Origin: Botryllus schlosseri
Lineage: Eukaryota
NCBI GenBank assembly: GCA_051294905.1
Contig: CM119371.1
Span: forward strand, 23,872,001 to 23,936,000
Direction: 5' to 3'
DNA: 64,000 bases
The notes beneath the pieces were generated by a model. The model did not search any database. It saw only the letters and a list, made by a program, of their open reading frames with translations, and had not been told where the DNA came from. The first letter of the stretch is position 1, and the number at the start of each line of letters is the position of its first letter. Below are positions 4,192 to 62,443 of the stretch, piece by piece. The translations under genes and the position numbers were made by a program.

Positions 4192-4359
4192 GTTTCGAAG
4201 CTGTCGATCTGGGATAGTACTATGACCTCAGATGTCTACAGTCATGTCGCGGCTATTATCGGTATCACGGGATGTTCGACAGTATTTTTTGGTAACTGCA
4301 ATTTGACGAAACAGAAATTGGACTGTTTCAAGACGACTGGCAAGGAAAATCAAATATCT
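4192..4359 (+). CDS. LRR-cassette exon A1 (56 aa, phase 0-0) of a spliced LRR gene
   Basis: ttatcattcag|GTT...TCT|gtaaga; 168 nt, no stop; VSKLSIWDSTMTSDVYSHVAAIIGITGCSTVFFGNCNLTKQKLDCFKTTGKENQIS; paralogous to 12405-12572. Confidence 0.85.
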
Positions 4360-4635
4360 GTAAGATGCATAGTTTGATGATGGAATTGCCGTTATAAAAA
4401 TGTATTTTTCCAATATCAGGACAAGAAAATGGGACGTAGCACGAATAAGACGACAGTGTCACGAACATTCTCAATATAATTTTGTCAAATTTTAAACACG
4501 ATCACGTCGCGATCTATATTGATAGCAGCTTCTGTTATCCTACCTTTCTTAAACAAAGAAAAATATCAACCTTCATCCACTCCACACTGTATTTGAAGAG
4601 CAATCAGTAATGGTAAAATAATTCCTATTTTACAG

Positions 4636-4803
4636 CTTTCAAGTCTGCAAATCACCGATGTCAAAATGCCAGCCGGAAGTTACCGTGAAATCGCAATTAC
4701 ACTCAAGTCCATCGATTGCGCAGAGATAACGTTCCAAAACTGCGAATTGACGAAACGGAAACTCTCTGAATTCTACACTGGGTGTAAAGACAATCATACA
4801 ACT
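4636..4803 (+). CDS. LRR-cassette exon B1 (56 aa, phase 0-0)
   Basis: tattttacag|CTT...ACT|gtaagt; 168 nt; LSSLQITDVKMPAGSYREIAITLKSIDCAEITFQNCELTKRKLSEFYTGCKDNHTT. Confidence 0.87.
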
Positions 4804-7289
4804 GTAAGTTGGAATAATGTTCGCTAGACTTTCATTGCTTACATACAGATATATTCAAAAGGGTGATCGCGGTGCACCTGTTGATAGCGAGACCCGACCG
4901 ACATACCACGCACCAATATTTAGTGAAACGGCTATGTTGACAGGAATTTTTCATTTGTAATGAGATTTGTAGACCACGGTAGCCAACAACCTGCCAGTGA
5001 TCACTCCTTGGTTTGGATCGTATGAACCTAAAGTTGCACAATGAATTATTGACGGGATATCCGATACTTGTTATGCTTTTCATTGGTGCAAGTACTGTTA
5101 GCAATTAAGGATAGTAACATAACATCATTCATTTTATGAAGCGCATACGGAGTATTGTCGTAAGAAGCGGTGTGATTCGCTAGCTCGGAGGTGTAATCAA
5201 AATCAGTATTGAACGTTAATGAGCCGTTAGCACAAGTCATGATTTTTTATGATTTCATATTTTAAAGTCCGATACACCCGTGCTGGTGGAATGGGCACAT
5301 AATTGTCAGTGGGGTCATCTATTCATGTTGACACCTAGTATTGCTGTACTTAAAATCAATTACTATTTTCAAGCATAGCTGTTACATTATTTTAATCCAG
5401 TGACTTCCTTGGACTGAGCGACATCCCAGCAAAATTATTGTGGCGTTAGCGGTTGAATCGCGGCCTGCCTCGTGGATTCGCCGTGTCAATTTAGGCCCAT
5501 GAAAGCTGTACGAGTCGCCTTATTAGTTTCAACCTAGATCGGGAGTGGCCAAAAGTTTTGATCAAAGGACTGCTATGTATGAGGGGTCGCGCGTGTTTTG
5601 ACTCCGGAAATTTGAATATTATAAAGTGGATTTTGCCTACTTGCATTACTTACTGAAGTCGTTTTGTTTTAAGACTACTTCTTCTTTTATCCGGACAGTG
5701 TTTTGGATAGACTACTTACTTTTTCAATTTAGATTTGAAACGAGAAAGCAGTTTATAGATAAGATTGCACCACTGTCGTGATTTAAACTGTAATTAGAAC
5801 CGTATGAAATAACACCATAATCAAAGTATGCCTACCTGAATATATTTTCCCTAGATTCCACCTGAGGGTAATTTTATAATAGCCATTGTCGTTCGGTCTG
5901 GAAGACACATGTTGCGGTTTCGTATGTAGACACCTCCGAGTAACTGCTAAACATATGCAGCCCCTACTAAAAAAAACTTTAGACGCATTCTGACGGCGGG
6001 GTAGCGTGGTGGTATGATCGACAGCTATAGCACCAAAAGGTTGTGGGTTCGAGTCCGACCGCCACATGATCCATGTAAGTGCAGTCCTATAATAAGCCTA
6101 GAAGTCGGCCGTACTAAAAGTAGGAAAATACGGAATCAAAAATAAAAGAATATAGGGCTGGCATAAAATCTCCAATGCAGTCGAAACACCATGAATATCA
6201 AAACAAAAAACACATTCTAACTTTATACTTTTCAGAGTTTTCATTTTCTAATCCACAAAGAACACAACCTTCAGCAGGACAGATAGATAGTTTAATATTT
6301 TGTGTTACGTGGATTACGCTTAACACACAGTCAGACCATAATATTGGCAACGGTAATTGTCCAATTCATAGTAAGCAGCGAAGCAGAAGGGAATAGAAAG
6401 ACGCGGTAACGATAAGTCAGCATTATACAGTGCAACGGAAGACTAATCATATGAAGATCATGATTGTTAGGTTACGGATCACCATACATCCCGCAAGTAG
6501 GGTTATATTTGCAAGATGCCATTGCATTTATGAAACGCATAGGTATCATTAACGAGAATTGTCCTAAGAGACGAGAAAGTTGGATATATCGAAGGGCTAA
6601 TTCAAAATGAGCAAAGTATTGAATGATAAGATATGCAAATCGATTCAGAATGTAGGCTACAGTAACAGATGATCCATTTCGCACATGTTATGGTCGGTAT
6701 TATTTCCTACACGAAAGCCATGTATATTCGTAATCTGAAGGATAAAGTGAGGGCGCAAAGCTTTGGTTATGACTATGTGTGAAATGTATCAAAAAATACC
6801 TATCATCATTATTAGACATTTTCGTCAATTTTTCGACGTAATTGATACTTGAATTGGCATATAATAGACACCGGAATTTTCTTTCTGTTGGCAGCTAGTA
6901 TCGTTGCACTTAAACAGCATTTTATTCTCATACACAGCGGTTAAATAAAGTTGATGTATAAACGAGCTTCCACTGTTCGACATTCTTCTGAAATTCTCGT
7001 GACGCATCGGTTCCAGGGCCATGGGAAGTCTCATGCATCGTACCAATTTGGACTGTGAAAGCTGTCCGAGTTGCTTTCGTATGCACTAACATGATCTAGT
7101 GTAGCCATCATGTTTGTTCAAAGGGCGACAAACATTTACGAGTGATCACTCGGGTGATAAACGGAAGAAGGCGATGTCTAAGCCAGCTCAATTTTTTCGT
7201 CCGGGTAACGGCTGCCTTACATTATGCTGAAAAAAGCTAGCTGATGACAAACAAAATGTCAGCAGATAAATTTTAGATAGCAACTAGAT

Positions 7290-8712: not shown

Positions 8713-9145
8713 AACTAGATGGAAGTACAATGAGGCTGTGCAGGTGTTATGACCGTGATGGTATTATAGACAAAGAAAGAAAAGACTAAATGCCAATTTC
8801 CAGAAATGCAACGCAACAGAAAATACGTAGGCGATTAATTTAAAATCATATGGTATTTTGGTAAGTAGCGCGTAGCTCATGCTGAGAGTTCTTTAGGCTC
8901 TCATCTTGGTCGAGCATTGCCTATATTCTATATGCATCACTATTTTATTTGAACAGCATCAATATGGAAAGCGCTGTTCATTGACACATTGTCCTAAATA
9001 AGTTGATAACTTGATCGCACAGAGAAGACTGTTTCGATTATGTTATATGCCAAGCCGCCAAATATCGATATATGGAGAAGTAAACAGCCAGCGTTATATA
9101 CCCGTCAGAAATAGCTAATGAATTGCAAATACTATAAGTCTTCAA

Positions 9146-10014: not shown

Positions 10015-10221
10015 ATGTACAACAGGATCTGGGATGAAAGAAATGTCGACTTGTAATCCCATCAAACGGACATTAGTTATTGGAAATATATATTTTATGA
10101 GTATACTGGCAGTATTGGCACATACGTCGAATAGACTATATAAGATTTGATGTGGCAGCAGCAGTCAATCATTTGTTTTGAACGAACTCGTTTTGCTATT
10201 TCATTAAATATTATATATAAT

Positions 10222-12404: not shown

Positions 12405-12572
12405 CTTGCCAAGCTGTCGTTATGGGATGGTACGATGACGTCGGATATATATGGCCTCGTTGCGGATATTATCAGCATCACGGGATGTTCGACTATATTT
12501 TTTGGAGAATGCGATTTGACGAAACTAAAGTTGCAAGCTTTCACCGAAACCGGCAAGAATAACAAGATATCT
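12405..12572 (+). CDS. LRR-cassette exon A2 (56 aa, phase 0-0)
   Basis: ttatcattcag|CTT...TCT|gtaagt; 168 nt; LAKLSLWDGTMTSDIYGLVADIISITGCSTIFFGECDLTKLKLQAFTETGKNNKIS. Confidence 0.85.
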
Positions 12573-12711
12573 GTAAGTTGCAAATTTTGCTGATTGATTT
12601 GTTCGGATTTAAATAATTCGTATTACGAAAAGAAGTACCAAGAAGTAAATCGACCACTGTAAACCGTAATTATAAATCAATCCGATATGGTGATTATATC
12701 TTATTTCCTAG

Positions 12712-12879
12712 CTCTCGAAGCTGCACATAAGAGATGTCAAAATGCCCGCCGAATGTTACCGCGAAATCGCAACCACACTCAAGTCCATCAGTTGCAAAGA
12801 GATATTGTTCGGACACAGTGAATTGACGAGTCCGAAGCTTTCTGAATTCTACACTGGATGTAAAGACAACGATATAACT
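12712..12879 (+). CDS. LRR-cassette exon B2 (56 aa, phase 0-0)
   Basis: tatttcctag|CTC...ACT|gtaagt; 168 nt; LSKLHIRDVKMPAECYREIATTLKSISCKEILFGHSELTSPKLSEFYTGCKDNDIT (partly seen as ORF 12742..12936). Confidence 0.87.
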
Positions 12880-14198: not shown

Positions 14199-14625
14199 AT
14201 ACCGATTTCGGAAGATCTTGAGGAAAACACAGTTTGCTAGAAATGTTGCCAACATTTATTTACGTGGTGTTTGGCATGCGAACCGTGAGCTTCATGTCCG
14301 TGAATATTTTGAGTGAAGTAGCAGTATTTTCTAAATATCTTAGCAGTAATCGTGAGCATTCTTGAGATAGAAACTGCTCCGAAAACTAATTATTCGGCTT
14401 TCACGCTATGCTAAGGTAACATTCTCTAAGCATTCATTCATTACTTGCTACAATTCTTGTCACTAGCGGTGCAAACTGGCTAGGGATCAATTATAATTTT
14501 ACGCACGAGTTGTTGGTGCAATAAAACACTCCGTTCGATCATTATCACTATTCCCGTGCTAAATTTTAAAGACAACACTAGCGCAGCAGCTCCGCCGATC
14601 ACGCTGATAACGAGGGATGGCAGAT

Positions 14626-15415
14626 TATTATATTCTTTATTCACAGTAAAACTGGTAAATACACACATAATCCGGGGAGCAACCTGCCCCCAAAGGAAAA
14701 TGGCGAGATTGGAGTAAATTTTTAAAATTTCAGTAATACATTCAAATTGTTATTCCTATGCAATACATGGAGAAGTCAGATTACAGAATTGCAGCAGATG
14801 AAGAATTGGCTAGGGTTACAGAGCAGAGGTAGAGATGATTGAAGATGAAGAATCGACATTACAGAAATTATGCTGTGATTCACAAGTGTAATTTTAGTGC
14901 AGTGGTGCATTCAAGGCCTTCCGAAGAATGTGCACAGTGCCCAATAATGTGATCTTTTGGATCATGTCGAATCGAACGTTACCCGGAATTTGTTGGATAT
15001 GTCTCAGGAGTTTTTTGCTCACGACCCCTATAGCGCCAATGACTAGCGGTACCATGTTTATTTTGCATCGCCACATTTTCTCACATTCCATTTTGAGGTC
15101 TGCGTATTTGGAGTGTTTTTCTGATTCTTTTTGCAGTAGGTTGTGATCAGCTGGGACAGCCAGTTCAATGAATAAGCATTCTCTTTTCTTTTTAGTTTGA
15201 CGATTATATCCGGGTGGTTGCTCCTGATTTCGCGGTCAGTTATAATAACTATCACATCCCACAGAATTTTTACTTGTTCGTTTTCTGTCACTGGTGCTGG
15301 GCTGTAATCGTACCAATTTTTTGTCGAAGTGGTGATGTTAAAATGTTTGCATAATTCAATATGAATGTAGTGACCAATCCTATTGTGTCTCCATGTGTAT
15401 TTGGTAGCTGCAAGT
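14626..15415 (-). mobile_element. 5'-truncated R4/Dong-clade (restriction-like endonuclease) LINE copy
   Basis: Nearly identical to 62470-63259; ENEQVKILWD...TDREIRSNHPDIIV motif, frameshifted; 3' end GTGAATAAAGAATATAATAA. Confidence 0.9.
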
Positions 15416-15482
15416 TATTAATATTATGTTCAAAAACAATTTTAGTGACGCATATAACAACGATGGTCTTTTGCGTCACGAC

Positions 15483-16310
15483 TTAACAGTTGCTAATCGA
15501 ATCGAAACAGTTGCAAATCGAATCAATATTGTGATGAGTAAAGACAGTCAACCAAACATTTAATACTGTCTCTTTGTCTTCGCTATGAATTCCCATGGCT
15601 GAGGTAATATATAATCGGGTAGTTAATATATTTTCCATGGTGAAGGGTACTCTCAAGTCCAGTACGGCAGCTCTAAACTGGCATCTTTCGTTGGTGTACT
15701 TCGCACACTCTATAATAACGTGCTCTGCAGTTTCTTCAACATGGAATGTGGTACAATGAGGGGTATCGGAGCATCCAATTTTGCTAAGATGGGAAATGAT
15801 ACGACAGTGACCGGTCCGCAATCTGAAAATGGTGATTTCGGCCTCGCGTGGCTTAGTTATAGTTGGTAGTTTCGTGTATATGTCGGAGCAGAACTGCTTG
15901 AAATGTGCTCCAGCGTCTGTTTCGATGAAATGTTGGTTCCAGTCTCGCCCACAGGGATTTAAAATCATTGAGTTGGCTTCGCTAGAAGTATAATCTATAC
16001 TTTGGTCAGCGAAGTCATGGGCCGCAGCCTCTTTAGCAAGTCGGTCAGCGACTTCATTCCTATTAATACCACAGTGTCCTGGAATCCATATAAAAGAAAC
16101 ATCTCTATGGCTTTCATGTAAGAGATGGTGAGTCAGTTCTAACATTGGATTGGTAATATAGTTATTTTCACCAAGATGGTTTTTTAACGACAGCAATGCA
16201 CTTAAAGAGTCGCTCAGAATAGTCACTCGTTCGATGGAATTTTCTAAAATCCATACCAATGCATCGAATATTGCTCTCAGCTCAAATGACAGAATTGATA
16301 GGAGTTTCAA
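15483..16310 (-). pseudogene. LINE ORF2 RNase H / C-terminal fragment
   Basis: ELRAI..A, SDSLSAL, WIPGHCGINRNEVADRLAK, RLRTGH, ETAEHVIIEC. Confidence 0.88.
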
Positions 16311-16323
16311 ACATGCTTTTGAC

Positions 16324-18397
16324 CAGGGCTTTGGAGCAGCCGTAAATTTGCATTACTCCAGCTCCGGCTCCGGAGCTTTATTCCATAATACATTAGCTCC
16401 GGCTCCAGCTTCGGAGCCGCATTATTACCACTGCTCCGGCTCCAGTTCCAGCTCCGGCTCTGAAAACTATCGAAGGTGTCTATATCAGGGGTGGGCAACC
16501 CGCGGGCTGCGGGCCATATGTGGCCCGCGAGAAGGTTTTGAGTAGCCCGTGAGCTAATTCTCCACTATATTATCAAAATTCTGTTATATTATCGAAATTG
16601 AATTGCTCAGATTGTGAGCTTGCAAGGCCAACCAAAAATATGATTAGTCTGGCCGCAACACTTGGGATGTTGATGGCTAAATATCAGTTTCGACGCATTG
16701 GCAGATCTAGGGTCCAGTCACATTTTTACTAAATCGTCGTACATTACAATAAACTAAAATAGTAGTAAAATTTTACTTAACGCTTCGCGTGTTTAATTGT
16801 CACACGATTTCTTTCTTGGTAGCCTACCCCCACCTGAAAATGAACAAACGCCGGATTTAGCCGATTGAGTCTAACTATATTCGTAATTGCGAGAGAAAGT
16901 ATTTTCGCGTTTGTGCTCGCAGAAAGATCGTCGGCGATGAAATGTAGACACAAAATGATTGTCGTATATTAGCGGACATTTTCGATATCGATATGTCCAG
17001 ATGCTGAATAGTCCTGTCCTTGCAAACTGAGCCCAGCGGGCGGTATTCAGTCGACCCGCAATATACCCAAGTAATAACAATAATACCTTTGAAAATTTTA
17101 CGCGCCTGGCGCGGACATAATGAATACTTGTCAATTGTCGATAACATCAGAGTTGCACTAGAACGCACTTTACTCCGTGCCATTGCTGTGTACAGCATTA
17201 AAATTCTGATGCGGCGTTTTAACACTGGCACTGTACTCGTTAACATTGAGCCATACAGCTCAATTCAATTTTTAAATGCGCGATTATTATTCAACTGTAA
17301 CTGTAGTAAGAGCAATATGGGTGGATATAACGACGTGATCAATAGAAATTCGATTTGTACCTAATGGCCAATGGTTTGACGTTCGATATTGGTGCACTCG
17401 TTACCAGTCCATCCGCTGTCGATCAAGTCTATCTGAATATAATATTTTTCGGTAGAAACAAATCGAGTAATCGAATTAAACACTGTTCCCTGCACAATGC
17501 GCCATGCCCATAACGAATTAAACTATGTAGTATGCACATTGCACATTTACAAGTCACAGTGCGCGATAATCCTGGAATACTGGAGTATCAAGCAGACTTC
17601 AAGAATGAATTAACGAAACAGATGATTACAAATTGGAAATCGTGTATCAAATCAGTAATTTGTCTCCAACATAAAATACCATGGGGCTTTGGGCTACTCT
17701 TCTGCCATCCCCTATTTACGTTCGAAAATCCTTACTGGCGTGAATGACGATGATGCGCAGTAATGAATTCCAATTGAGATGCATAATTGCATAGGCCTAC
17801 TCAATAAAACTGAACAATTTTGCGGCCCGATTAAAGAACTATCACAAAAGAATGAGTATTTGCTCATCCGATTCATGGCAACGATGAGATGGAATTTCTC
17901 GGCGCGTGCTCGTCAGATCGACATGTGCAACGAAATCACGTTTTTATCCTCTCTCCCATTTCGCGCAATGCATAGTGATCATTATTTTCGAATCGTACAA
18001 TTGGCCAACAAGGTTGATGAAATTGCGGGTATGCCGAACACCCACAATATTCACAGGCGTATTTCGTATACCGAGGTTCGGCACTCATGTGTGAAAATTG
18101 AACATTGAACATATGACTGCTCTGCTGTTAAATCCCCAGGAACATGGTTAGTCGGAAAAGGTAGCGCCAAAGAGGAGAAGATTCTTAATTTCGCGAAGGC
18201 CTGCTGTTGAATTAAGTGAACTCAGCAGATATGGTTGTTGCGTAGATAATAGCATCTTATGAAATACGTTGGATCCGGAGCTACCCCTCAAATAACTGGC
18301 TCCAGCTCCGGCTCGGCTGAATTGTATGTAGAGATCCGGCTCCTGCTCCAGCTCCGGTAAAAATGCACGGCTGCGGGGCTCCGGCTCCAAAGCCCTG
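16324..18397. mobile_element. hAT-type non-autonomous element with GGAGCC/GCTCCG subterminal repeats, inserted in the LINE RNase H
   Basis: TIRs CAGGGCTTTGGAGC / GCTCCAAAGCCCTG; TSD CTTTTGAC/CTTTTGAT; contains the left end of a CAGGGGTGGGCAAC MITE at 16486; a related copy lies at ~45028-49237. Confidence 0.88.
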
Positions 18398-18947
18398 CTT
18401 TTGATGTTCTTGTATTGCGATCGGGGATGTAGAAGGAGCACCCAGCACCATTGATGTTTTTAGATCCATCGGTATAAATTAGCATTCTGTTCGGGTATTG
18501 CTCAAAAATATGATCTCTGAATACAGGATCATCAATGTGAGGTTGGGGGTCGCGTCCGAGGGCTGTTTGCAATGATGTATCAATCATAGCGCATTTCAAT
18601 AACCAAGAGCATATAGTAAGAGGATGGTTACCTCTGATTTTCAAATGATCCAATATTTGAAGTCGGGATAAGATATTGAAAGACACAAATCGGTATGAAA
18701 GTAGATTGTGAATTTCCTCCCATGAACCCTCCAATAAACTACGTGCTGGGTTCGATTGTCGAGTTCTGATCTTGGAACGGTACTTGAGACAAAGATATTG
18801 GTGCCTGAGAAAGAGGGGCATGTCGTTACACGAGGCCTCTAGTACGCATATAGGGGTGCTGGACATGGCACGGCAAGAAAGTCTGAGAGCTTGATTGCGG
18901 ATTGCAATTATTTTCATGAGGTGTGATTTCGGTGCGAAGAAGTACGC

Positions 18948-19895
18948 TTACATGCCATACTCTATGATTGATCTCATCAGGCTCCTATACAGGATTAATA
19001 CCGTTCGAGTGGATGCACCCCAAGATGTGCCGGATACCATTTTGAGTAAATTCATGCGCTTCGCGCATTTGGATGCAACGTTAGATGCGTGTATCTTATA
19101 GTTGAGTCTTTTGTCAAACGTGACACCTAAATATTTGAAGGATTCCACATACCTCAGCTGATGACTTCCTAGTTTGATTACAGGTTGTACATGATTTCGC
19201 TTTTTCGTGAAAACCATTGCTACGGTTTCCTCGTCCGACACCATAAAACCCCACTTTACACACCATCGATGGATCTGGTCAAGGGATGACTGAATGTTTT
19301 GAGCAAGTTCGTCAATAGCAAGACCGGTCTTCCAAATGGCACAATCGTCCGCATAGAGTCCCATATCTGACTCGATAACTGTCGGGAGGTCATTTATCAT
19401 AATGCTGAATAACAAAGGGCTAAGCACACTCCCCTGTGGAATACCATTTTCTGTGATGAAAATGTCAGATAAAGTTGTGCCGATTCGGACTTGGAAAGTA
19501 CGGTCGTTTATGAAATGGTTGATCCAAGAAAGACTAGGCGCCGAAATACCCATTTCCCGTAATTTATAGATGCCAGCAGCCCTCCACACCATGTCATATG
19601 CTCTCTCGATGTCTAGGAAGACAGCTAAAACCGATCTTCTATTATGGATAGCTTTGTAGGTGGCATCGTGTAATCGGAGCACATGATCAAGGGCCCGCCG
19701 ACCCCGACGAAAGCCACTTTGATCTGAGTGGAGTAAGCCGTGCTTTTCTAGGTACCAAGAGGAATTGGGAATTGGAATAACGATGGAGTGCTTCCAGCTG
19801 CGAGGAACAGCGCCATTGCACCATGAGTAATTTATCACCGAAAGCATACTGAGTAGGGCATCTGGCGGGAAGTTTTTAAACATATGGAATAGCAA
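18948..19895 (-). pseudogene. LINE ORF2 reverse transcriptase domain fragment
   Basis: RT motifs listed above; flanked by frameshifted continuations 18406-18917 and 19876-20848. Confidence 0.9.
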
Positions 19896-21006
19896 AGAGT
19901 GTCATGTCCTGGGACGTGTCTTTTTTCGAGTTCAGTGCTTTCGCAAGCTCTGCAATCGTGTAAGGATTGTTCAGGAAAGTATCGTTCCTATGGTTTCCCA
20001 CTTCTATGTGGAGTGAAGCTCTCAGGTTCAACCTATGACGGTATTTCAAAGAGCTGCTACAACGGTTGAATGTCTTCGGTAGAACTTGTGCTTTTCCCCT
20101 TTTATCAGTAATATAGTTTCTTTCAACTTTCAAAGATGCCACCGAACTATTAGAAAGATTGCCCGAAATAGAACGGACGACACTCCACACTTTCTATAAA
20201 TTTCCCATGGGGCCAAGTGTTTCACAAAAGGATCTCCATGATTCACGTTTTGCTGTTAGTGTATCACTCGTCTGCGATGTCTTGCGTATCAAACGTTTGC
20301 CTCATTTTCAAAAACGATGCCTTCTTCCTTCTCACTGCCCTGGCGCAATCGTCGTTCCACCATGGTACTGATGACCGACTGTGACTTCTCTTGATTGGAA
20401 CGGACAGGCTGGCTGCACATAATACATCGCTAGTGAATTTCACGACCATAGCGTCTCTGCTGTTTCCGAGATTTGGCAACTCGGGTTGATCAATCATCTG
20501 GCGAAAACTTGCGCAATCTGCCTTCGAAAGGGCCCACGTAAGCGGACGTTTGTTAGAGCGGGGTATTTTAGCCATTAAAGATGTTAGTATGATAAAATGA
20601 TCCCTGCCTAATTTGGAGTTTGTCACGTTGGTAGAGCACGAGTGTGCGATATCTGCCGATGCCAGTGACAAATCGATGAGCGAGGCCCTGCTCACTGCGT
20701 TGTATGCAGTATTGATGCCAGTTGGACTCGTTGCGCTGAGGGTTACCAATTCATGCCGGTTTATTGAATCATACAACATGTTCACTTCGATGCACAGCGT
20801 ATCTGTACCACCACCGGGTGACTGAATATCGAGAATTCGATAAGACAATTGCTTACTAATTAGAATGGCTAGCCCACCACTGCGTAGAGTTTTATCCTTC
20901 CTTTCAATATTGTACCCTTTAATTTGGGAACATATTTATCAATAAGGTAAATAACATAATATCAGTAGGCCTATGGAGTTGTTCTCTAAAGTTCTTCAGT
21001 TCAGGC

Positions 21007-26497: not shown

Positions 26498-26665
26498 CTC
26501 TCAACTCTGTATATAATCGATGCCCAAATGCCTGCTGAATGTTTTCGTGAAATCGCAATCACACTTAAGACCACATGTTGCAAAGAGATACAGTTCGAAA
26601 ACTGCGAATTGACGAGTCGGAAGATTTTTGAATTCTACACTGGATGCAAAGAAAACGATCTATCT
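26498..26665 (+). CDS. LRR-cassette exon B3 (56 aa, phase 0-0)
   Basis: tattttatag|CTC...TCT|gtaagt; 168 nt; LSTLYIIDAQMPAECFREIAITLKTTCCKEIQFENCELTSRKIFEFYTGCKENDLS. Confidence 0.87.
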
Positions 26666-31121: not shown

Positions 31122-31124
31122 ATA

Positions 31125-40201: not shown

Positions 40202-40230
40202 AAGAGCAGCGCCATCGGACCCATGGTCTG

Positions 40231-41547
40231 CTATGGCATGTTTACAGAATTGCCCGATTGGTGGGGCTCATGTTCGCCGGTGACTGGCGGAACACCATCT
40301 CTATTTCTATTGGGACACGAAACTAGAAGGTGACCCAACTGGCCACAGTTAGCACAATGGGAGTTTGGGCAGTTTTTGTGAATGTGTCCAGTCACTCCAC
40401 AGTTATGGCAAGGTCCATACCCAAACGTTACTCTTCTTCGAAAGGGAGGGCTTCTAGGCCGACTCATCGGCGGTGGATTACTGGCAGTCACTAGGTTGCT
40501 AACCAGGTCAATCAGCTTGTCAATTTTCGATTCTATCTCATTATCACGCTTGCCTACTGCAAGAAGTTCATCGCCAGTTTTTGGTTGTAGACTTACAGGA
40601 GCCACAACTGGTTTACTAGTTTCGAACAATTGACTGTTAGGCGGTCCATCAACAGAGAAATACAAATCCGCGGAAGCAACTAGCTCATCTAGGTTACTTG
40701 TTTTCATCAACGTTAGCTGTCGGCGAAGGTTAATATCGCCAAGACCGTTGATAAACTGTTGACACACAAACTCATCACGAGCCGCAGAATTCATACGTGG
40801 AAAAGCCTTCAAGCTAAGCGTAGCCAGAACTGATGCGAATTCTGTTGGGGATTCTCCCAATTTCATTTTGCGTTTGTTAAATTCAGTACGGCTCAAGGTT
40901 TCCATACCCCATGGAACGTAGCGCTTCTTCAATTGGGCAATTACACGATCAATATCCCGACGGCAATCAGCCGACATTTGTCCAAGCACTTGCAAAGCGT
41001 TACCACGTAAGCTAGCATTAAGCCTAGTACAAGCAGTTTGTTCGTCCCATCCGTTGGCCAATGTCACCGCATCAAAATGGCATAAATAATCGCTAATGGG
41101 CATATTCACACCATCAAATTGTTCCAGTTTAATAACACCAACAGCGGGTTTGGGCATGCTATGACTTGATGGAGTGGGGCGTACAGAATTGCTACGAGTA
41201 ACACGCACTCTATCATTTACATACTGTGGTTCTGGAGACATCACACCAGTTTTACTGTCAGTCATATCAACAAACTCCCCCATGTCACCATTATCATTAC
41301 TGTCAAACACACATCCACTCGCATTCGGAGCCGCAGACATACTCTCACCTCCCAAACTTTGTACAATGGTTAATACACGACTGAGGGTACTGTTTTGGGC
41401 TTCCACCATATCGTCGATCCGGCGATGAACCCGTTCCAACTCTGCTCGCAGATACTCATTCTCTTCACGCAATGAATCCATGCCGATACCGGTATTCTTG
41501 TTGCACTGATCGCTGGTTGTTAACTTGAAGACTGGTGTGCTCGCCAA
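40231..41547 (-). CDS. gag: Gypsy Gag with two CCHC knuckles (first ATG at ~41481)
   Basis: FDG, ANGW, QFINGL capsid-type motifs; CHNCGVTGHIHKNC and CANCGQLGHLLVSC. Confidence 0.92.
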   Translation of the reverse strand: MASTPVFKLTTSDQCNKNTGIGMDSLREENEYLRAELERVHRRIDDMVEAQNSTLSRVLTIVQSLGGESMSAAPNASGCVFDSNDNGDMGEFVDMTDSKTGVMSPEPQYVNDRVRVTRSNSVRPTPSSHSMPKPAVGVIKLEQFDGVNMPISDYLCHFDAVTLANGWDEQTACTRLNASLRGNALQVLGQMSADCRRDIDRVIAQLKKRYVPWGMETLSRTEFNKRKMKLGESPTEFASVLATLSLKAFPRMNSAARDEFVCQQFINGLGDINLRRQLTLMKTSNLDELVASADLYFSVDGPPNSQLFETSKPVVAPVSLQPKTGDELLAVGKRDNEIESKIDKLIDLVSNLVTASNPPPMSRPRSPPFRRRVTFGYGPCHNCGVTGHIHKNCPNSHCANCGQLGHLLVSCPNRNRDGVPPVTGEHEPHQSGNSVNMP

Positions 41548-42949
41548 TTGTAACGGTGTCGCTACTAGTTCTTTATACTCTTCAAGTGTAAATCAGTTCA
41601 CAGCCAGACAGATACCGTAACAGTTGTATTGACGACAGTAGAAAGCCGGAAACGTGTACCACCCAGACACAGACAGAATATTCTAGAAGGTTGCGGTTAT
41701 CTCCCGCGAACGCATTGTCTACAGGGGTGACGTCATCAGTCGCCATAGATGGCGCCCCGTCACACTTTGCGATAGGTATGGATGTACGTGAATTTACAAG
41801 CTGGTATGTAATCCTGATTTACAGGGACAGCATGTAGGTAGGTAGGCGGTAAAATGACAGTCTCGATCGCAAATGTACAGGAGAACATGTAGATTAGATA
41901 TACCGGAGGTGACTGTAACATTACAGTCTGGCGTGTAAAGTGAGATTACCGGACGAGTGTAAGTTAAATTTACATTGACTAACGGTAATGTTAGATTACC
42001 ACGAAATGTCTGGCTACCGTGCTTCCAAACATTTCGCGGTAAATCGAGGTTTTTATTTTTTACAGTGTAGTCGCCCAAGAATGCAAAGAATCATCGCCTT
42101 CAACTCTACACATGAGCTAATCAGTGTCTTCCAAGTACTTGACCATCTGAGTCATTTCATTGGCTATAACTAAACTTTTCTTCGATTGCTTGCTTGTATA
42201 ATTGAAAAGTTTTGAGTACTTTGATTGCGGAGGATCTATTACCTTTTCATCACTGGATGATTTTGTACAATGCATCGCTACTATATTTACCATTGTCTGT
42301 TGTTTTTACGGCGGTATAGGCTACCTGATATCAGACGAGTGCAACGAAAGCAGTGGGACAAATAGCGATGTCGCCAGAATTCGTCAGATGCGTTAATCTA
42401 GCCATTACGATTCGCAAATTTCTTCATCTTCAAGTCAATGACTTGGGCCGAGTCATGCGTAATGACTCGAGTTCAAGTCAAGTCAATCCAAATATTTACT
42501 CGAGTCGAGTCGAGTCATTTTTCAATTTCAAGAAAATGACTCGAGTCAAGTCGAGTCACAAAAGAATCGTGACTCGAGTCAACTGAAGATTAGCGTCAGA
42601 ATGGTCATTTCTAAAGTAGGGGGTTTTGCGTTTCAAAAGGAGGGGGTTTCGCCGCCCCTGGCTACGCGCCTGTCGCCACCCCATGCAAAAATAAAAGTCG
42701 GCCTCCATGCCTACAGGTCCACTTTCTATCCAGCCAATCCTCACATCAAGCCGAAAAGAATATATCAATTATTATAATTTCTCTCCGTTTAATCGACCGA
42801 TTTCATGTACCTGATTCGCCTATATTGAGCCATACTGCCCAATACCAAAGTAACATTTTTGAGTTTTTTCAGTCTTCAGTCTTTTTGAGTATGTGACTAC
42901 GACATATGGTGATAAACTACACTAGTGACTCGTTCGTCTTTGTTTATAG

Positions 42950-44033: not shown

Positions 44034-44201
44034 ATTTCGAAACTGATCATCATGGATAGGACAATGCCTCCAGACGCTTATTTCTACATCGCAACTACCG
44101 TCAAAGCCGCCAAATGTACTATACTATATTTCGTAAATTGCGATTTGTCAAAACAGAAATTGGAAAGCTTGTTGATGGGCTGCAGGGAAAGTCACAGCTT
44201 G
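44034..44201 (+). CDS. LRR-cassette exon C (56 aa, phase 0-0), more divergent paralog
   Basis: tctcatccag|ATT...TTG|gtaagt; 168 nt; ISKLIIMDRTMPPDAYFYIATTVKAAKCTILYFVNCDLSKQKLESLLMGCRESHSL; same SKL-x-I-x-D-x-x-M and C-x4-F-x-NC-x-L frame as the A/B exons. Confidence 0.83.
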
Positions 44202-55994: not shown

Positions 55995-56210
55995 CTTATA
56001 TTATCGAACTTTTTCTTTCCAAAATCCCCAACAAAATATCTCTATACAGCAAAATGTTTGTATCAGTAGGGTATTGACAATTTAGCAATTATAATGAGTC
56101 TGCACAGTAGGGTGTTTCATCTCAGATGGCCAATCTTTTGATGTGAGCTCTGGAGTTTTACTGGTAATGAAGCAAAACTGTCTCGTGATTTTCCGAATTT
56201 GAAGAAATAC

Positions 56211-59200
56211 TGTTATGTTCTTGATCTTGTTTGAACGATAACTCAATACGACGAGGTTGCAATATGAAATCAGTATATATTAACAGCAGTATAACTTTAA
56301 GACAGGCGACACGATCCAGAGTGCAGTTAAATGAAAGACCCGTAGAGAACAGAACACAGGGTATAAATACAAAGCACGACACACGAGGAAATAATGATTG
56401 GCAGTAATTACTAATCCTAGACAAATAAGAAACAAACGATACCAACGTAAAATGCACGAACATAACAGTCCTCCCCTGTAAGTTAAGAGTACAGGTGATC
56501 TACGTTGGCCGATAGAAATCAGTTTGTTTTCTAATTCTATGCGGATAACGTCTGCCCGACGTTCGAGCAGGACTAGCTACAGGACGTTGTGCCCTATTCC
56601 TGACCAATGGTTGCTCAACTTGTGGTTGCTGAGGCTGAGCAACTTCCTGTGTGGCTGTATTATTGCCAGCTGAAATCAAGCGTGGTTGGAGTTGGTTTTT
56701 GTGCCTTCTCCAATACCCATGATCCGTTTTTACAATGTACACAACACGCCCCAGTATTTCCGTCACCACGCCAGCAACCCACTTTGGTACGCTTCGGTAA
56801 CTGCGAGCGTAAACCGAGGAACCAATCTCGAAATGAGTGACTGATTGTCCAGGCGTAACGGGTTTCGATTTGTCGAAGGGCGAGCACAAACTTAACAAAT
56901 TGCGCGGCTGTCGACCATGTAAAATCTCGGCAGGCGTTTTCCAGTCTATGCCCGGGTGCGGTGCACATCGGTACGTAGCGAGAAGTGTTTGGAGCGCGAA
57001 GTTGAGATCTTTTCCCCCGTCGCAATTTTTTATTAATCCAGCTTTCAAAGTCTGGACGAAACGCTCCGCTTCCCCGTTCGAGGCAGGGTGAAAAGACGGT
57101 GATACGATATGGCTGATAGCCAAATTAGAGCAAAACGTATCGAATTCATTCGATGTGAATTGCGGCCCGCCATCCGTGACAATTGTTATAGGCAAGCCTT
57201 CGACAGAGAAGACTTCCCTCAAAGCGTTGACCACACACAAGGTTGTGGTAGAACCGACATTCATTACTTTAACGAAAGGATATTTCGAATGCGCATCGAC
57301 GATGACAAGAAATATTTTATTGTTTATTGGACCTGCGAAATCCAAGTGAATTCGTTCAAAGCTTTCAGAAGTTTTTGGCCATTCGCGATACTGACGATCA
57401 GGCGCTTTCATTACCTTACGGCAAGCGTCGCAACTCTTAACGAGATTTTCAATGTCGCGATAAATGGAAGGCCATGCGATGTAACGTCGAGCCATCTGCT
57501 TCATTTTCGCGATACCCCAATGTCCTTCGTGCAACAATGATAATACTCGCGAGCGAAGTGACTGCGGAATTACTACGCGCTGAAAACCATCAATATTGAG
57601 CATGACTATGTCTTCGTGCAGAGAAAGTGAATGTTTGCGAGTTGAAAACCAAGAAAAATCATCAATGTGCGTCTTTGGATTCCAATTTCCATGAGTGACA
57701 GATAATTTCACTAGTTCCATGGTTTTGTCTTTCAGCGTCGCGTCCCGAATTTCATTGCGAGTTAACGGTAAGCCATCGAATGCCATATTAATAGCGTGAA
57801 CGATCTCCGCGTTTTCACGAATTTCCAGTTCGTCAAACTCAGGGTCTGGACCCTTTGGTAAGCGAGATAAACCGTCGGCGTTTCCGTGCTGATTAGTCGG
57901 TTTATAGCGAATATCGTATTGGTAAGCCATGAGCGTTAGTGCCCATCGCTGTAAGCGTTGCGCTGTAATCACGGGAATTTTCTTGTCCGGCGAGAAAATA
58001 GCTAAAAGCGGTTTGTGGTCCGTTACGAGCGTAAATTTTCTACCATACAAGAATTGACGAAATTTAGTGACTCCGTAAATGATTGACAGAGCTTCCTTCT
58101 CGATTTGAGAGTAGGATTTTTGCGAATCAGAAAGTGTTTTCGACGCGTGCGCGATCGGTCTCTCTTCGCCATTGTGCTCGATTGAGAGGACAGCGCCGAT
58201 TCCTAATTGAGAAGCATCAGTTGACAAAATGAGCTGCTTGTTTACATCATAATGAGCTAACTGCGTAGCGTCGATTACGTCGTTTTGGAGAATGCGAAAA
58301 GCTGCGTCACAGTCCGTATTCCAAATGAATTTCGCGTCTTTTTGAAGTAGACGGTACAAGGCAGCGGCTTTATTCGTGAAATTAGGAATAAACGCGCGAT
58401 AATAATTTACTTTGCCCAGGAATGCCTGTAGCTGGCGAACATCCTGAGGTTTAGGCAACTGTTTGATTGCTTCAACGGATTTGTTAGACGGGCGTTTGCC
58501 GTCCTTGTCGATTATATGACCAAGGTACTCGATACTACTTTTGAAAAATTCACATTTCGCGAAATTGACGGTGAAGCCGTATTCGGTGAGGTGCTCAAAG
58601 AGTAGCGATAAGTTGCGAAAATGATCGCGTTCATCAATGCCAGTAACGATTATGTCATCGATAAAACTAGCAACACCGGGTAAGCCGGCGATCATGGCAT
58701 CAATACAGCGTTGAAAATTTGCGGGACTAGATGCGACTCCGAAACACATGCGTCGATAACGGAAAAGACCGAATTGCGTGTTGATGACACACAAATTCTT
58801 CGCATCATCATCTAATTCTAGCTGAAAATAAGCATCGGCAAGATCAATTTTCGTGAAAATACAACCACCCTGTAACTTGTGAAGAATTTCATCTAATGAG
58901 GGCAGGGGATGTTGATCTATCTGAATTTGTTGATTCAATGCTTTGAAGTCACCACAAATGCGTACTGATCCATTTGATTTAGTGACGGCAACAATTGGTG
59001 CTGCCCAATCACTGTAATTGATTGGTTCGAGGATACCTTGATTGACTAATCTATCCAATTCGGTTTGAACAGCGATTTGCCTTGCAAACGGCAAAGGGCG
59101 TGGCTTGTTAAATACGGGGTTGGCATTAGGTTTCAAGTGAATTGTCACCTTTGTCTTGGTGCATCGTCCTAATACATTAGAGAAAACGGAGGGAAATTTG

Positions 59201-60934
59201 GACTGAAAAGATACCAATTTGTCGTTCGAATCAGAAATGTCAATAGTATTACATGATTGCGATTTGACCATCTGCGAGGAAATTGCATCCAAAGCAGACG
59301 TTGCCTTAGCGGTCATGGAGAAAGCGTCGCTCCAATCGAGACCAAAAATGTTTTGCCCACGGTGTTCGTCGAGAACTACCAATTTTAAGCCAACTCGAAC
59401 TTCAGAACCCACCTGCACAGTTACAGTGCAAATACCTTTCACTTTCAGTGGCTTGTCGCCGTACGCTACTAAAGAGCAATGGTATGCTGAGAGTTTCGGA
59501 GAGCCCAAAGTTTTGTACCCAGTCAATCCCACCATGGCGGAGGGTGCACCAGTGTCCCACTGTGTTGACAACGGAATGCCGTTGATGCTGGAGTTGATCC
59601 AGAGCTGGTTTCCCACGCGTCGATATAGTTGATCGATGTCGAAGGAGAGGAGTGGCACTGAGCAGAAATTGACGGATGTGACCTGTTGCGTGATACTAGG
59701 TTTGGTAGACATGCACACAGGTTTGATATGACCTTTACGACCACATTTCTGACATACTGCATGTCGATATTGACAGTCTTTTCTCTGGTGATCGATGAAA
59801 CAGCGGCTGCAGGATTTCAGTCTTTCCGGGAAGTTGCCTTGGATGGATTTGGAAGGTTTTTTCCCCTTCTGATAACTTCCCGTCATTTTGTTGACGATGG
59901 AAGCGTCTTTACTGCTACTCTCGCCTTGGATAACCCTATCAGTTTCCAGCGTTCTCACGTGTGTTGCGGCTACTTTGAGAACGTCGTCAAGGGATGGATT
60001 GGTTTGTGTTAGACAATGCCGTCTCACATCCGCGTGCGGCGTTTCTTTAATGATGAGATCGCGCATTAGCTCATCAACGTAGCTCTGATCACAGCCATCT
60101 CTTGAGCATATGAAGTTGCAATCTTTAGAGATTCCGCGTAGAGTAGCGATCCAATCGGCGTACGATTGTCCCGGTTGCATTTTACAGTTGTAAAATTCGT
60201 ACCTGGCTGCTTGCACATGAATTGAGTCTTTGAAGTGTGTAGACAACTTCTCAGACAACGCGTCGAAGGTTTGCGCACTGACATCAGCAGCCCCAAACAA
60301 ATTACGTAAGAGCGAGTACGTTTCAGGTCCGACCCATGAGAGTAGACACGCTCTTCTTTTCTCCATGTTGGAAATACCGTAAATTGCTAGGTGATGGTTG
60401 AATCGTTGCAGATACTGGTCCCATTTCTCCTTTGATTTTACGAATGAATCAAACTTGGGAGCGATGGCTTCAGATGTTGACGCACCGGGACTCAACCTCT
60501 GCACTAATTGCGATATGGCCTCCTCATGCTGCAGCTTTTGCTGTGCCATATCTTCTTTGTGCTGTGCGCGTTGTTCCGCCATCATCTCCTGCTGCTTCTC
60601 TAGAAGCTTCAATATACTTGCTTCCATGATGTATCTCAGTCGCAGAAATAAATATGAATCCGACTTCTGACACCAATTGTTATGTTCTTGATCTTGTTTG
60701 AACGATAACTCAATACGACGAGGTTGCAATGTGAAATCAGTATATATTAACAGCAGTATAACTTTAAGACAGGCGACACGATCCAGAGTGCAGTTAAATG
60801 AAAGACCCGTAGAGAACAGAACACAGGGTATAAATACAAAGCACGACACACGAGGAAATAATGATTGGCAGTAATTACTAATCCTAGACAAATAAGAAAC
60901 AAACGATACCAACGTAAAATGCACGAACATAACA
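56211..60934 (-). mobile_element. Intact young Gypsy (Mag-like) LTR retrotransposon (element 2)
   Basis: 257-bp LTRs 56211-56467 and 60678-60934 (one difference seen); 5-bp TSD AATAC; PBS TGGTGTCAGAAGTCGGATTC (60656-60675), near-complementary to a tRNA-Leu 3' end; PPT AGGGGAGG. Confidence 0.97.
56500..60627 (-). CDS. gag-pol: Single-ORF Gag-Pol polyprotein (probable start MEASILK at 60627)
   Basis: Gag knuckles CSRC..DH..C and CQKCGRKGHIKPVC; WDTGA protease; RT (IDLADAYFQ, FGVASSP, FIDD); RH (TDAS, EKEAL, TDHKPL, ADGLSR); integrase (LHEGHWG, CDAC, LDFAGP, TDGGPQF, AERFV). Confidence 0.96.
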   Translation of the reverse strand: MEASILKLLEKQQEMMAEQRAQHKEDMAQQKLQHEEAISQLVQRLSPGASTSEAIAPKFDSFVKSKEKWDQYLQRFNHHLAIYGISNMEKRRACLLSWVGPETYSLLRNLFGAADVSAQTFDALSEKLSTHFKDSIHVQAARYEFYNCKMQPGQSYADWIATLRGISKDCNFICSRDGCDQSYVDELMRDLIIKETPHADVRRHCLTQTNPSLDDVLKVAATHVRTLETDRVIQGESSSKDASIVNKMTGSYQKGKKPSKSIQGNFPERLKSCSRCFIDHQRKDCQYRHAVCQKCGRKGHIKPVCMSTKPSITQQVTSVNFCSVPLLSFDIDQLYRRVGNQLWINSSINGIPLSTQWDTGAPSAMVGLTGYKTLGSPKLSAYHCSLVAYGDKPLKVKGICTVTVQVGSEVRVGLKLVVLDEHRGQNIFGLDWSDAFSMTAKATSALDAISSQMVKSQSCNTIDISDSNDKLVSFQSKFPSVFSNVLGRCTKTKVTIHLKPNANPVFNKPRPLPFARQIAVQTELDRLVNQGILEPINYSDWAAPIVAVTKSNGSVRICGDFKALNQQIQIDQHPLPSLDEILHKLQGGCIFTKIDLADAYFQLELDDDAKNLCVINTQFGLFRYRRMCFGVASSPANFQRCIDAMIAGLPGVASFIDDIIVTGIDERDHFRNLSLLFEHLTEYGFTVNFAKCEFFKSSIEYLGHIIDKDGKRPSNKSVEAIKQLPKPQDVRQLQAFLGKVNYYRAFIPNFTNKAAALYRLLQKDAKFIWNTDCDAAFRILQNDVIDATQLAHYDVNKQLILSTDASQLGIGAVLSIEHNGEERPIAHASKTLSDSQKSYSQIEKEALSIIYGVTKFRQFLYGRKFTLVTDHKPLLAIFSPDKKIPVITAQRLQRWALTLMAYQYDIRYKPTNQHGNADGLSRLPKGPDPEFDELEIRENAEIVHAINMAFDGLPLTRNEIRDATLKDKTMELVKLSVTHGNWNPKTHIDDFSWFSTRKHSLSLHEDIVMLNIDGFQRVVIPQSLRSRVLSLLHEGHWGIAKMKQMARRYIAWPSIYRDIENLVKSCDACRKVMKAPDRQYREWPKTSESFERIHLDFAGPINNKIFLVIVDAHSKYPFVKVMNVGSTTTLCVVNALREVFSVEGLPITIVTDGGPQFTSNEFDTFCSNLAISHIVSPSFHPASNGEAERFVQTLKAGLIKNCDGGKDLNFALQTLLATYRCAPHPGIDWKTPAEILHGRQPRNLLSLCSPFDKSKPVTPGQSVTHFEIGSSVYARSYRSVPKWVAGVVTEILGRVVYIVKTDHGYWRRHKNQLQPRLISAGNNTATQEVAQPQQPQVEQPLVRNRAQRPVASPARTSGRRYPHRIRKQTDFYRPT

Positions 60935-61653
60935 AATACAAATTAGGTTATCAAAATGTTTGTATCAGTAGGCCATTGACAATTTAGCAATTAAAATGAG
61001 TCTGCAGAATAGGATATTTCGTCTCAGATGGTCATTCTGTTGATATGAGCTCTGGAGTTTTACTAGTAATGAAGCTAAACTGCCTTGTGATTTTCCGAAT
61101 TTAAAAAATACAAATTAGGTTATCAACTATTTTGAGTCTTCGCGGACCCCAGAGGTCCGCGGACCCCCGGTTGAGAACCACTGCTCTAGTGCATTGTGCA
61201 TTCGGTTATATACAAATTATACAGCTACGTTAATTCCCCATTCAATCGGACGGCATTTGTACAGCATGGTACCGGTAATTTACAACAGAGTCTCGTCAGT
61301 ATGGTATGGCATGGTAGTATGTTGCAATATGAGTGGCATTGAGAGTACGTGCTGTTGTATCATGTGGCTGTAAACTGACTGTCGCAGCATATGTTTACAT
61401 ATACTACATAAATAAATTGAGCTACAATATGGAGGTCACGTCGAGCAAGTGCGACGGTTAAGATATCACGCCAGAAATTCCGCAACGGTTTAAGAAACGA
61501 TGACACGCAGCCATACGTCAGTTGGGCTTATCCAAAATTCAGGTAATTGCAGCTCCATTACGAAGGCATTCTGAACAAAATGACTGCGGCCAAAAAAAAA
61601 ATTAGATCTGTGCTTCAATTTGAGATCATATCATTTGTGGAACGTAGTGCCTC

Positions 61654-62099
61654 TTGGGTTGCCTTTAAAACAAACGGTGTTTTAAAACACTTTGTTTAAA
61701 GCGTATTTTAGACTGTGTTTTAAAAAAGGCCTTTAAAACATTGTGTTTTTTTTCAGATGTAAAATTATGCCCTACATGTTTAAACACTTTCCAAGAAAAC
61801 ATGTTGTATGAGTCTACGGACGATTGCCACCCGGTATAGCCGGCGTACATTGGGATGGAATAGTTGGAACCCACAAAATAGTCATTTCAATAGCAATAGA
61901 ACAGATATTTCGTCAAAGGAGCTATATAGTTACCCAATATTTTCAATTTTCATTGTTAATGAACTATGACGTCACAATTAAATATTCGTGACGTCACGGC
62001 TTTAAAAAAAACTAATAAAATAACAAAACATGTTTTAAACAAGAGCATTGTTTGAAACATCGTTGTTTTAATTTGATTCCTGTTTTAAATGCAACCCAA
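61654..62099. mobile_element. MITE with TTTAAAACA repeats inserted in the Kolobok TIR
   Basis: TIRs TTGGGTTGCCTTTAAAACA / TGTTTTAAATGCAACCCAA; TSD AGTGCCTC/AGTGCCCC. Confidence 0.75.
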
Positions 62100-62272
62100 A
62101 GTGCCCCTTTAACGCTTAATGAAGGTTCCGTTGCAAAACTTAGTGTCATGTTTCGCTGAGGCAAATGTTGAAATAACTACGCTATTTTCTCAGAACATTT
62201 TAGGTACTTATTAACACAAGTGTTTGACATGTACTGTCGATATAATGCAACATTTATACTTGTTGACTTCAG

Positions 62273-62443
62273 ATTCCGGCACTTTGTATTTATTGGTCAT
62301 ATTCAACTGCAACTGAGGATCATATATCAGTTCTGTGCAATTTGATGGAGTTTGCTGTGGTAGAACTGGCTCTATTTAATTGGGAAATTGATGCAGAAGG
62401 AAGACAAAGACTTGAAGATACACTTCATCTTGAAAACTCAAAG
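62273..62443 (+). CDS. Probable further LRR-like exon D (57 aa, phase 0-0), possibly near the C-terminus
   Basis: tgttgacttcag|ATT...AAG|gtgggt; 171 nt, stop-free; IPALCIYWSYSTATEDHISVLCNLMEFAVVELALFNWEIDAEGRQRLEDTLHLENSK; two strand-like motifs (IPALCIYWS, VVELALFNWEI) about 28 aa apart; low identity to the other exons. Confidence 0.6.

Follow-up and report, generated by a model that had tools for sequence, protein, structure and literature searches.

We analysed a 64,000-nt stretch of the Botryllus schlosseri genome (hereafter the window: contig CM119371.1, here C1, positions 23872001-23936000; AT-rich, with a GC content of 0.38-0.46, and free of N) and found that eight exons on its plus strand are very probably the last eight coding exons, and the ribonuclease inhibitor (RI)-type leucine-rich repeat (LRR) end, of one ~171-kb NACHT-LRR gene on the plus strand of C1. 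The gene forms a 1.5-Mb tandem cluster with seven paralogues, and the genome holds roughly 30 such genes, judging from 35 terminal (D) exons and 28 NACHT exons. It is an ordinary, unannotated member of the known class of NOD-like receptors (NLRs), intact-looking but possibly silent.

Eight frame-neutral exons in the window

Exon borders were set with a script that enumerates in-frame AG...GT pairs within plus-strand stop-to-stop frames. This confirmed the eight plus-strand exons that a first-pass annotation, made from the sequence alone, had proposed, with their sizes, phases, AG/GT dinucleotides and A-B-A-B-B-B-C-D order all as described there: seven cassettes of 168 nt and one exon, D, of 171 nt, each stop-free and in phase 0-0, for a total of 449 codons (Table 1). 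A pyrimidine-rich tract and AG precede every exon, and the GT that follows stands within GTAAG after the seven cassettes, as opposed to GTGGG after exon D. The stop-free frames around the exons are just 58-112 codons long and so fit them tightly. The introns between them measure 276, 7601, 139, 13618, 2205, 14995 and 18071 nt.

Each cassette encodes two 28-residue units, and the seven 56-residue peptides align without gaps to the consensus LSKLxIxDxxMPAxxYREIAxTLKxTxCxEIxFxNCELTKxKLxEFxTGCKxNxIS, with cysteine at 25 of 392 positions (6.4%). When a profile of the seven cassettes was run against the six-frame translation of the window, it returned exactly these seven at E values of 1e-29 to 1e-33, with the next best hit at 0.36, and we conclude from this gap that the cassettes are not chance open frames. 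Exon D was not matched by the profile in the same six-frame search.

Table 1. Exons of the gene and mobile elements in and around its 3' end. Positions without a prefix are those of the window; L-prefixed positions are those of the locus named.
Feature	Position	Strand	Remarks
NACHT exon	C1:23762938-23764173 (L041 4938-6173)	+	412 codons, no stop; 109 kb upstream of the window
First cassette	L058 1344-1511	+	exactly 168 nt; acceptor ttttttgtcag, donor gtaagg; matches P0033 residues 269-326, E 4e-7
Four upstream cassettes, A-B-A-B	L042 4829-4996, 7055-7222, 8633-8800, 9075-9242	+	canonical splice sites; 10-15 kb before the window
LRR cassette A1	4192..4359	+	168 nt, phase 0-0, two ~28-aa units; acceptor cattcag, donor gtaaga; profile E 1.3e-31; paralogue C1:24213689, 89% aa identity
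LRR cassette B1	4636..4803	+	168 nt; acceptor ttttacag, donor gtaagt; profile E 6.6e-33
LRR cassette A2	12405..12572	+	168 nt; profile E 3.5e-29
LRR cassette B2	12712..12879	+	168 nt; profile E 2.4e-32
Non-LTR retroelement, fragmented	14623..20935	-	intron B2-B3; Pfam RVT_1, RNase_H, Exo_endo_phos_2 (endonuclease, reverse transcriptase and RNase H frames)
LRR cassette B3	26498..26665	+	168 nt; profile E 1.5e-32
LRR cassette B4	28871..29038	+	168 nt; profile E 2.9e-32
Ty3/Gypsy-type long terminal repeat (LTR) element	36060..41764	-	intron B4-C; intact gag (453 aa) and pol (1273 aa); Pfam protease, reverse transcriptase (RT), RNaseH, integrase, zf-CCHC
LRR cassette C (last regular cassette)	44034..44201	+	168 nt; profile E 9.6e-30
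LTR element	56050..61108	-	intron C-D; 1480-aa gag-pol frame; Pfam RT, RNaseH, integrase
Exon D (putative degenerate C-terminal LRR pair, cap; probable terminal coding exon)	62273..62443	+	171 nt; 35 D-like genomic copies; P0007 match
Read-through tail	62444..62563	+	39 codons, then a TAA-type stop at 62561-62563
5'-truncated non-LTR element copy	62469..63259		inserted 26 nt past exon D; source of most of the read-through tail

A NACHT exon upstream and a cluster of eight paralogous genes

The genome (a 495.5-Mb assembly of 219 contigs) was searched with single exons as queries. A B-type cassette found at least 147 exons, an A-type cassette 140, and exon D 35 D-like exons (36 candidates, all scored), while the pre-LRR part of P0001, a homologue from the ascidian Styela clava, found 28 family-type NACHT exons at E <= 2e-40, set well apart from the next match at E 4e-30. 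For fine exon mapping, tblastn with the Styela proteins (30-35% identity) was too insensitive; the window profile and the homologue P0033 worked better. On C1, between 23.45 and 24.97 Mb, eight NACHT and eight D exons follow one another in strict alternation, all on the plus strand, and all 83 distinct cassette exons of this cluster (the union of the A and B searches) lie within the eight NACHT-to-D intervals, with none between them. The D exon of the window pairs with the NACHT exon matched at C1:23763142, which gives a gene span of ~171 kb, compared with 36-266 kb in the seven neighbours. Both places in which the first-pass annotation had thought to look were thus productive: the upstream DNA holds an intact NACHT exon on the same strand, with no death-fold exon found beside it, and the paralogous arrays sought genome-wide include eight tandem NACHT-cassette-D genes on C1.

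The NACHT exon scores 40.1 bits against the Pfam NACHT model (cut-off 26.7) and carries a P-loop, GEAGAGKS, and a Walker B motif, LLLVIDGLDQ. It is accompanied by three stop-free, putative helical-domain exons, collinear with residues 2-55, 61-164 and 163-219 of P0033 (E 1e-11, 5e-20 and 7e-7); Pfam matches to NOD2_WH and NLRC4_HD2 were seen only in the Styela homologues. The first cassette has one counterpart in each of the eight C1 genes. Together with the four upstream cassettes and the seven of the window it brings the gene to 12 cassettes, all of exactly 168 nt and in phase 0-0, which with exon D are spread over about 107 kb. We infer that all of these exons, NACHT and D included, belong to one transcript, and cassette splicing is presumably constitutive.

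The Death domain has 116 matches genome-wide and none in C1:23.4-25.0 Mb. The missing effector domain does not exclude membership of the NLR class, because ascidian NACHT-LRR receptors without an N-terminal effector domain have been reported, as far as the available portion of that study goes (PMC11508797).

Beyond this subfamily, at least 94 NACHT exons in the genome score above the Pfam cut-off (94 of 224 candidates scored), most of them members of different subfamilies whose exons, of ~500 aa, lie on C1, C10 and C16, which points to a strongly expanded NLR repertoire in the genome as a whole.

The cassettes encode a repeat that standard sequence models miss

None of the eight exon peptides had an LRR family match in Pfam; such hits as there were fell below threshold and looked like noise. 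The seven-exon profile matched just 48 of 1.84 billion representative proteins, and those bearing a name were all 'uncharacterized protein' of Styela clava, a solitary ascidian. They include P0001 (XP_039248824.1, LOC120326569; 2508 aa), with 32 matched stretches and Pfam NACHT and NOD2_WH domains; P0002 (1383 aa), with 23 stretches; P0003 (XP_077976001.1, LOC120336943; 1650 aa), with 11 stretches and Pfam Death, NACHT and NOD2_WH domains; and P0004 (445 aa), with eight stretches. The five closest multi-unit homologues, P0001-P0005, likewise lacked any Pfam LRR family at E <= 0.01, and the cassette profile had no match among PDB sequences at E <= 1. The suspicion voiced in the first-pass annotation, that this repeat escapes standard LRR annotation, was well founded.

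The fold of P0004, predicted with an alignment of six homologues, came out with high confidence (predicted local distance difference test score, pLDDT, 93.4; predicted template-modelling score, pTM, 0.87) as 16 strand-helix units with a ~28-residue period. A Foldseek search of the PDB with this model placed the LRR domains of NLRP2, NLRP5, NLRP9, NLRP3 and NLRP14 and ribonuclease inhibitors (3tsr, 2bex, 4peq, 1a4y and 1dfj) at the top, at E values of 1e-9 to 1e-7, a probability of 1.00 and a TMq of 0.48-0.59. Judged by this model, the 168-nt repeat is an RI-type LRR overlooked by sequence models. The earlier proposal of the RI-type LRR region of an NLR accordingly has in its favour the upstream NACHT exon, Styela homologues in which NACHT and winged-helix domains go with 11-32 units, and the NLRP- and RI-like fold of a homologue. 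A stand-alone RI-type protein was also considered as a candidate and is ruled out by the NACHT-to-D gene unit and the NACHT domain of the homologues.

If the model carries over, the 12 cassettes and exon D would form an RI-type horseshoe of about 26 repeats, which by homology with NLRs might act as the ligand-sensing and auto-inhibitory arm of a STAND (signal transduction ATPase with numerous domains) protein that oligomerises on activation. A function as a receptor is likewise suggested by analogy.

Exon D as the probable terminal exon

Exon D is 39% identical over 56 residues (E 1e-9) to the segment of the homologue P0007 that directly follows its LRR units; its alignment with the tail of P0001 was weak (E 0.012), and P0002 and P0006 gave none. 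In P0007 the LRR units and the cap lie on a single uninterrupted frame, and in its predicted structure (pLDDT 92.7) the segment equivalent to D forms two further strand-helix units. Given the position and predicted fold of this counterpart, we interpret exon D as a terminal, degenerate LRR pair. P0007 itself, a 222-aa uninterrupted open reading frame (ORF) from an assembled contig, was considered as a spliced transcript of B. schlosseri and rejected, as a genome search at E <= 1e-8 did not recover it; it comes from another species.

In an alignment of the window copy with the D exons of six paralogues, the acceptor, TTTCAG/ATTCC, is invariant in all seven, and an in-frame stop stands at the fourth codon after D in five of the six paralogues (VRF*, VRF*, VSV*, VGL* and VRY*), the sixth stopping after seven codons. 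The sequences GTCAGA and GTTAGA would be weak donors. Because the paralogues stop shortly after D and such donors would be weak, we read D as the probable last coding exon and the GT as more plausibly part of a valine codon than a splice site. This departs from the first-pass annotation, which had given D a GT donor and seen no stop: D appears to be terminal, with the stop of the window copy at 62561-62563.

Selection on the cassettes and exchange of A-B modules

In each of the 21 same-type cassette pairs within the gene, the proportion of nonsynonymous differences (pN) was lower than that of synonymous differences (pS), with dN/dS values of 0.15-0.71, and differences were most frequent at the third codon position (0.257, 0.182 and 0.358 for the three positions). 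A global alignment of 120-nt exon flanks between cassettes (70-80% identity in the aligned parts) was set aside as a control, since identity values rise with free end gaps.

The closest relative of A1 and B1 is an A-B module at C1:24213689/24214133 (89% and 82% aa identity), with which the window shares a ~1-kb tract bounded on both sides. Between the two modules, 35 of 336 exon sites differ, as do 47 of 275 in the intervening intron (Fisher p 0.017). Exon A1 shows a coding pattern in this comparison, with 4/2/10 differences at the three codon positions and 9 synonymous against 6 nonsynonymous codon changes. The paralogue that carries the close module is the fifth gene of the cluster, and its NACHT exon (C1:24164994-24166091) contains one TGA and one TAG, making it a likely pseudogene.

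Elsewhere in the cluster, in the gene whose NACHT exon lies at 24387707, A cassettes with equal scores recur at 24431738, 24437388, 24445057, 24450693 and 24456341, with B cassettes interleaved. This stretch, C1:24424000-24460400, reflects recent tandem duplication of a two-exon A-B module, which recurs every 5.6-7.7 kb, and a similar periodicity of ~6.3-6.6 kb is seen at C7:28.56-28.60 Mb. Cassette arrays would then grow by duplication of two-exon A-B modules and by exchange between paralogues.

Weighing the alternatives

A number of observations count against reading the exons as the end of one NACHT-LRR gene. The structural models are of homologues with 30-46% identity rather than of the window's own joined 449-aa peptide, the segment corresponding to residues ~220-268 of P0033 was not located in the fetched gene region, and tblastn with the Death region of P0003 gave no match in the 5 kb that precede the NACHT exon. 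The 171-kb gene is bloated, with 94 kb from the NACHT exon to the first regular cassette compared with 9-37 kb in the seven neighbours. Exon B1 differs from its close paralogue at 6/7/6 sites by codon position, with 5 synonymous and 11 nonsynonymous changes, and shows no coding pattern. At the 3' end, the conserved stop after D has been lost from the window copy, in which its usual position reads TCA (VGFS...), and the frame runs into a transposon that begins only 26 nt after the exon.

The RNA data belong to the same list. Four raw bulk RNA-seq runs with the same species label (X3, X5, X7 and X8) were mapped at 93% likeness to window positions 4100-24099, which cover A1, B1, A2 and B2; the sample comprised 7-13 million records, or about 6-13%, of each run, from unstated tissues and immune states. 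Depth on the four cassettes was 0-0.2 overall: 0.2 (X3) and 0.1 (X8) in the bin holding A1 and 0.03 in the next, zero in all four runs in the bin 12104-12770, and at most 0.2 in the bin 12771-13437. Nearly all mapped reads fell on intronic repeats, and among the best 15 of 25 joints in the four runs none lay at a predicted splice site of A1, B1, A2 or B2. The count of splice junctions that the first-pass annotation had envisaged, run on these four cassettes, returned none, which taken literally is the outcome that annotation had named as refuting its exons. Because depth was low and the tissues are unstated, we take this as a lack of support rather than as a refutation.

Part of this list would follow if the gene were the same one but silent, or a recently inactivated pseudogene whose exons are still intact for lack of decay time. 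We regard that as possible but unlikely. What speaks for it is the near-absence of RNA on A1, B1, A2 and B2, the loss of the stop with its replacement by a 39-residue, partly transposon-encoded tail, the giant introns with their very young elements (one with identical LTR segments), the ~1-kb tract exchanged between A1-B1 and a paralogue with two stops in its NACHT exon, and the missing constraint pattern of B1 against that paralogue. Set against it, all located coding exons are stop-free, from the 412 codons of the NACHT exon through the three helical exons and 12 cassettes to D; the cassettes have conserved AG/GT borders; pN falls below pS in every cassette pair compared; and the A1 and B1 exons have diverged less than the intron between them. 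The small share of each run sampled also tempers the RNA result, and NLR genes are often weakly expressed. On this balance we favour a NACHT-LRR gene of which the window holds the 3' end, in a copy that may or may not still be active.

A repeat-rich window and an exon family of at least 140 genomic copies might suggest that no host gene is involved, the exons being open frames that arose by chance or pieces of a transposon or dispersed repeat. This explanation is refuted by the confinement of all 83 C1 cassettes to ordered, same-strand NACHT-to-D arrays and by their match to annotated Styela NACHT-LRR proteins, and the depressed pN and the conserved splice sites speak against it as well; we give it practically no weight.

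The first-pass annotation had further proposed that alternative or stochastic skipping of the frame-neutral cassettes lets one gene produce a combinatorial LRR repertoire. All 12 cassettes being of 168 nt and in phase 0-0, any subset would indeed stay in frame, and in-frame skipping of an LRR exon is documented for human NLRP3 in the available text of PMC6642158. However, frame-neutral exons are a precondition for skipping and not evidence of it, and RI-type LRR genes are in general built of symmetric exons; in that text NLRP3 itself yields two main isoforms and no repertoire. The RNA runs gave no junction reads of any kind at A1, B1, A2 or B2 among the joints considered, and the four annotated Styela isoforms, X1-X4, are set apart by single-residue changes or by an alternative 3' end that is truncated, with no whole-cassette difference among them. 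The diversity of the family is visibly at the DNA level, in about 30 paralogues and in module duplication. We consider the combinatorial proposal, which found no backing in these comparisons, very improbable. A broader version would combine two levels of sensor diversification, duplication and exchange of A-B modules in the DNA and skipping of some cassettes in the RNA, regulated or stochastic, so that one gene could give several horseshoes differing in length and surface. If true, it would amount to a somatic-plus-germline system of NLR diversity in animals without adaptive immunity, with colonial relatives that have allorecognition, but we rate its chances as similarly slim.

Relation to known NLR systems

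The closest parallel in gene architecture is human NLRP3, whose LRR exons, in the available text of Hoss et al. 2019 (PMC6642158), are exactly 171 bp long, each coding for a 28-residue and a 29-residue LRR with the border always at the same place, exon 5 being skipped. With NLRP3 and other human NLRPs the window gene shares two RI-type LRRs per frame-neutral exon of equal length, a constant border position and a NACHT domain on a large upstream exon (PMC6642158), and the NLRP LRR domains match the fold of its homologue. In contrast to them, its cassettes measure 168 nt (28+28 residues) rather than 171 nt (28+29), it has no Pfam LRR match and no PYD or other effector domain was found for it, and its 12 cassettes and cap extend over about 107 kb; exon skipping, demonstrated in NLRP3 (PMC6642158), has no junction reads at the four cassettes mapped here. 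As frame-neutral two-LRR exons and their skipping have already been described for vertebrate NLRs, within what that source makes available (PMC6642158), the window gene presents no new mechanism.

Styela LOC120326569 and LOC120336943 are nearer in sequence. They share the 56-residue double unit (32 and 11 stretches), the NACHT and NOD2_WH domains before the array, a C-terminal tail resembling exon D, and a NACHT module 30-35% identical to the NACHT exon of the window gene; they belong to another species, at 30-46% identity, and LOC120336943 has a Death domain where none was found for the window gene. The ribonuclease inhibitor RNH1 resembles the array as a Cys-rich horseshoe of alternating ~28-residue strand-helix repeats. 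Unlike the window array, which stands behind a NACHT exon and whose cassettes have no sequence similarity to PDB entries, it is a stand-alone LRR protein. Zebrafish NLR-B30.2 (NLR-C) genes have likewise expanded greatly within their lineage, in tandem clusters and with LRR exons of equal size; they differ in lineage and exon size, and end in a C-terminal B30.2 domain where the window gene would have a degenerate LRR cap. The NACHT-LRR proteins reported from Ciona agree with the window gene in that no CARD or Death domain was found, whereas the available portion of that report makes no mention of the present subfamily, of its cassette layout or of its clustered expansion (PMC11508797). A literature search of open-access papers and preprints found no dedicated study of this subfamily or of an NLR expansion in stolidobranch ascidians.

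We are thus dealing with a lineage-specific tunicate NLR subfamily, with about 30 genes in this genome, whose LRRs are unseen by standard sequence models. Because those models miss the LRRs, domain censuses would score such genes as 'NACHT only' or miss their 3' two-thirds. The strict layout of a NACHT exon, 168-nt cassettes and a D exon offers a simple annotation rule. For the sister group of the vertebrates, the finding contributes an NLR family that is clustered and actively duplicating.

Mobile elements and minor observations

The introns, which the first-pass annotation had described as heavily decayed, turned out to be inflated by young, apparently intact retroelements and not simply decayed. 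The LTR segments of the Ty3/Gypsy-type element in intron B4-C are 100% identical over 217 nt, from which we conclude that this insertion is very recent; the element in intron C-D is flanked by direct repeats that are 96% identical over 276 nt and 89% over 157 nt. The repeat beginning at 62469 is 96.3% identical over 794 nt to window positions 14623-15415. That no transposon interrupts an exon, which had been taken as a sign of purifying selection, is true. It is uninformative, however, since the exons make up 2.3% of the span, and with 4, 10 or 20 insertions placed at random the probability that none hits an exon is 0.91, 0.79 or 0.63.

Further upstream, the largest intron of the gene contains seven long ORFs (205-1294 aa) in the same, plus-strand orientation (C1:23800159-23811449, from L055 4159 to L056 5449). 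One encodes an rve integrase core and a chromodomain and one has a P-loop motif, the others being without a Pfam family; the block is a large unclassified mobile or virus-like element. An 819-aa plus-strand ORF at C1:23775377-23777833 (L045 7377 to L053 1833) has a sub-threshold match to a Plavaka (KDZ-type) transposase, at 25.4 bits against a cut-off of 26.3.

Two features of the RNA mapping lie outside the exons. A short intronic repeat at window positions 13438-14104 reached an RNA depth of 50-136x on both strands in all four runs, with hundreds of loose read ends at 13792, whose consensus resembles a cDNA template-switch adaptor followed by G's; this suggests a highly transcribed repeat family with transcripts starting at 13792. 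At 9955-9982, reads of X3 and X5 end in long poly-G loose ends (359 and 547 reads), with odd back-joints to 13.8 kb, which probably reflect an artefact of the libraries or of repeats.

Among the 116 Death-domain matches, many are ~100-aa ORFs arranged in inverted pairs, 5-23 kb apart and with identical scores, as at C4:20656892(+)/20667428(-), C5:25440527(-)/25450416(+) and C12:17220158(-)/17243607(+). Some of these pairs lie inside NLR clusters on C12, C9 and C17, and they look like a repeated element that carries a Death-like ORF in its inverted terminal copies.

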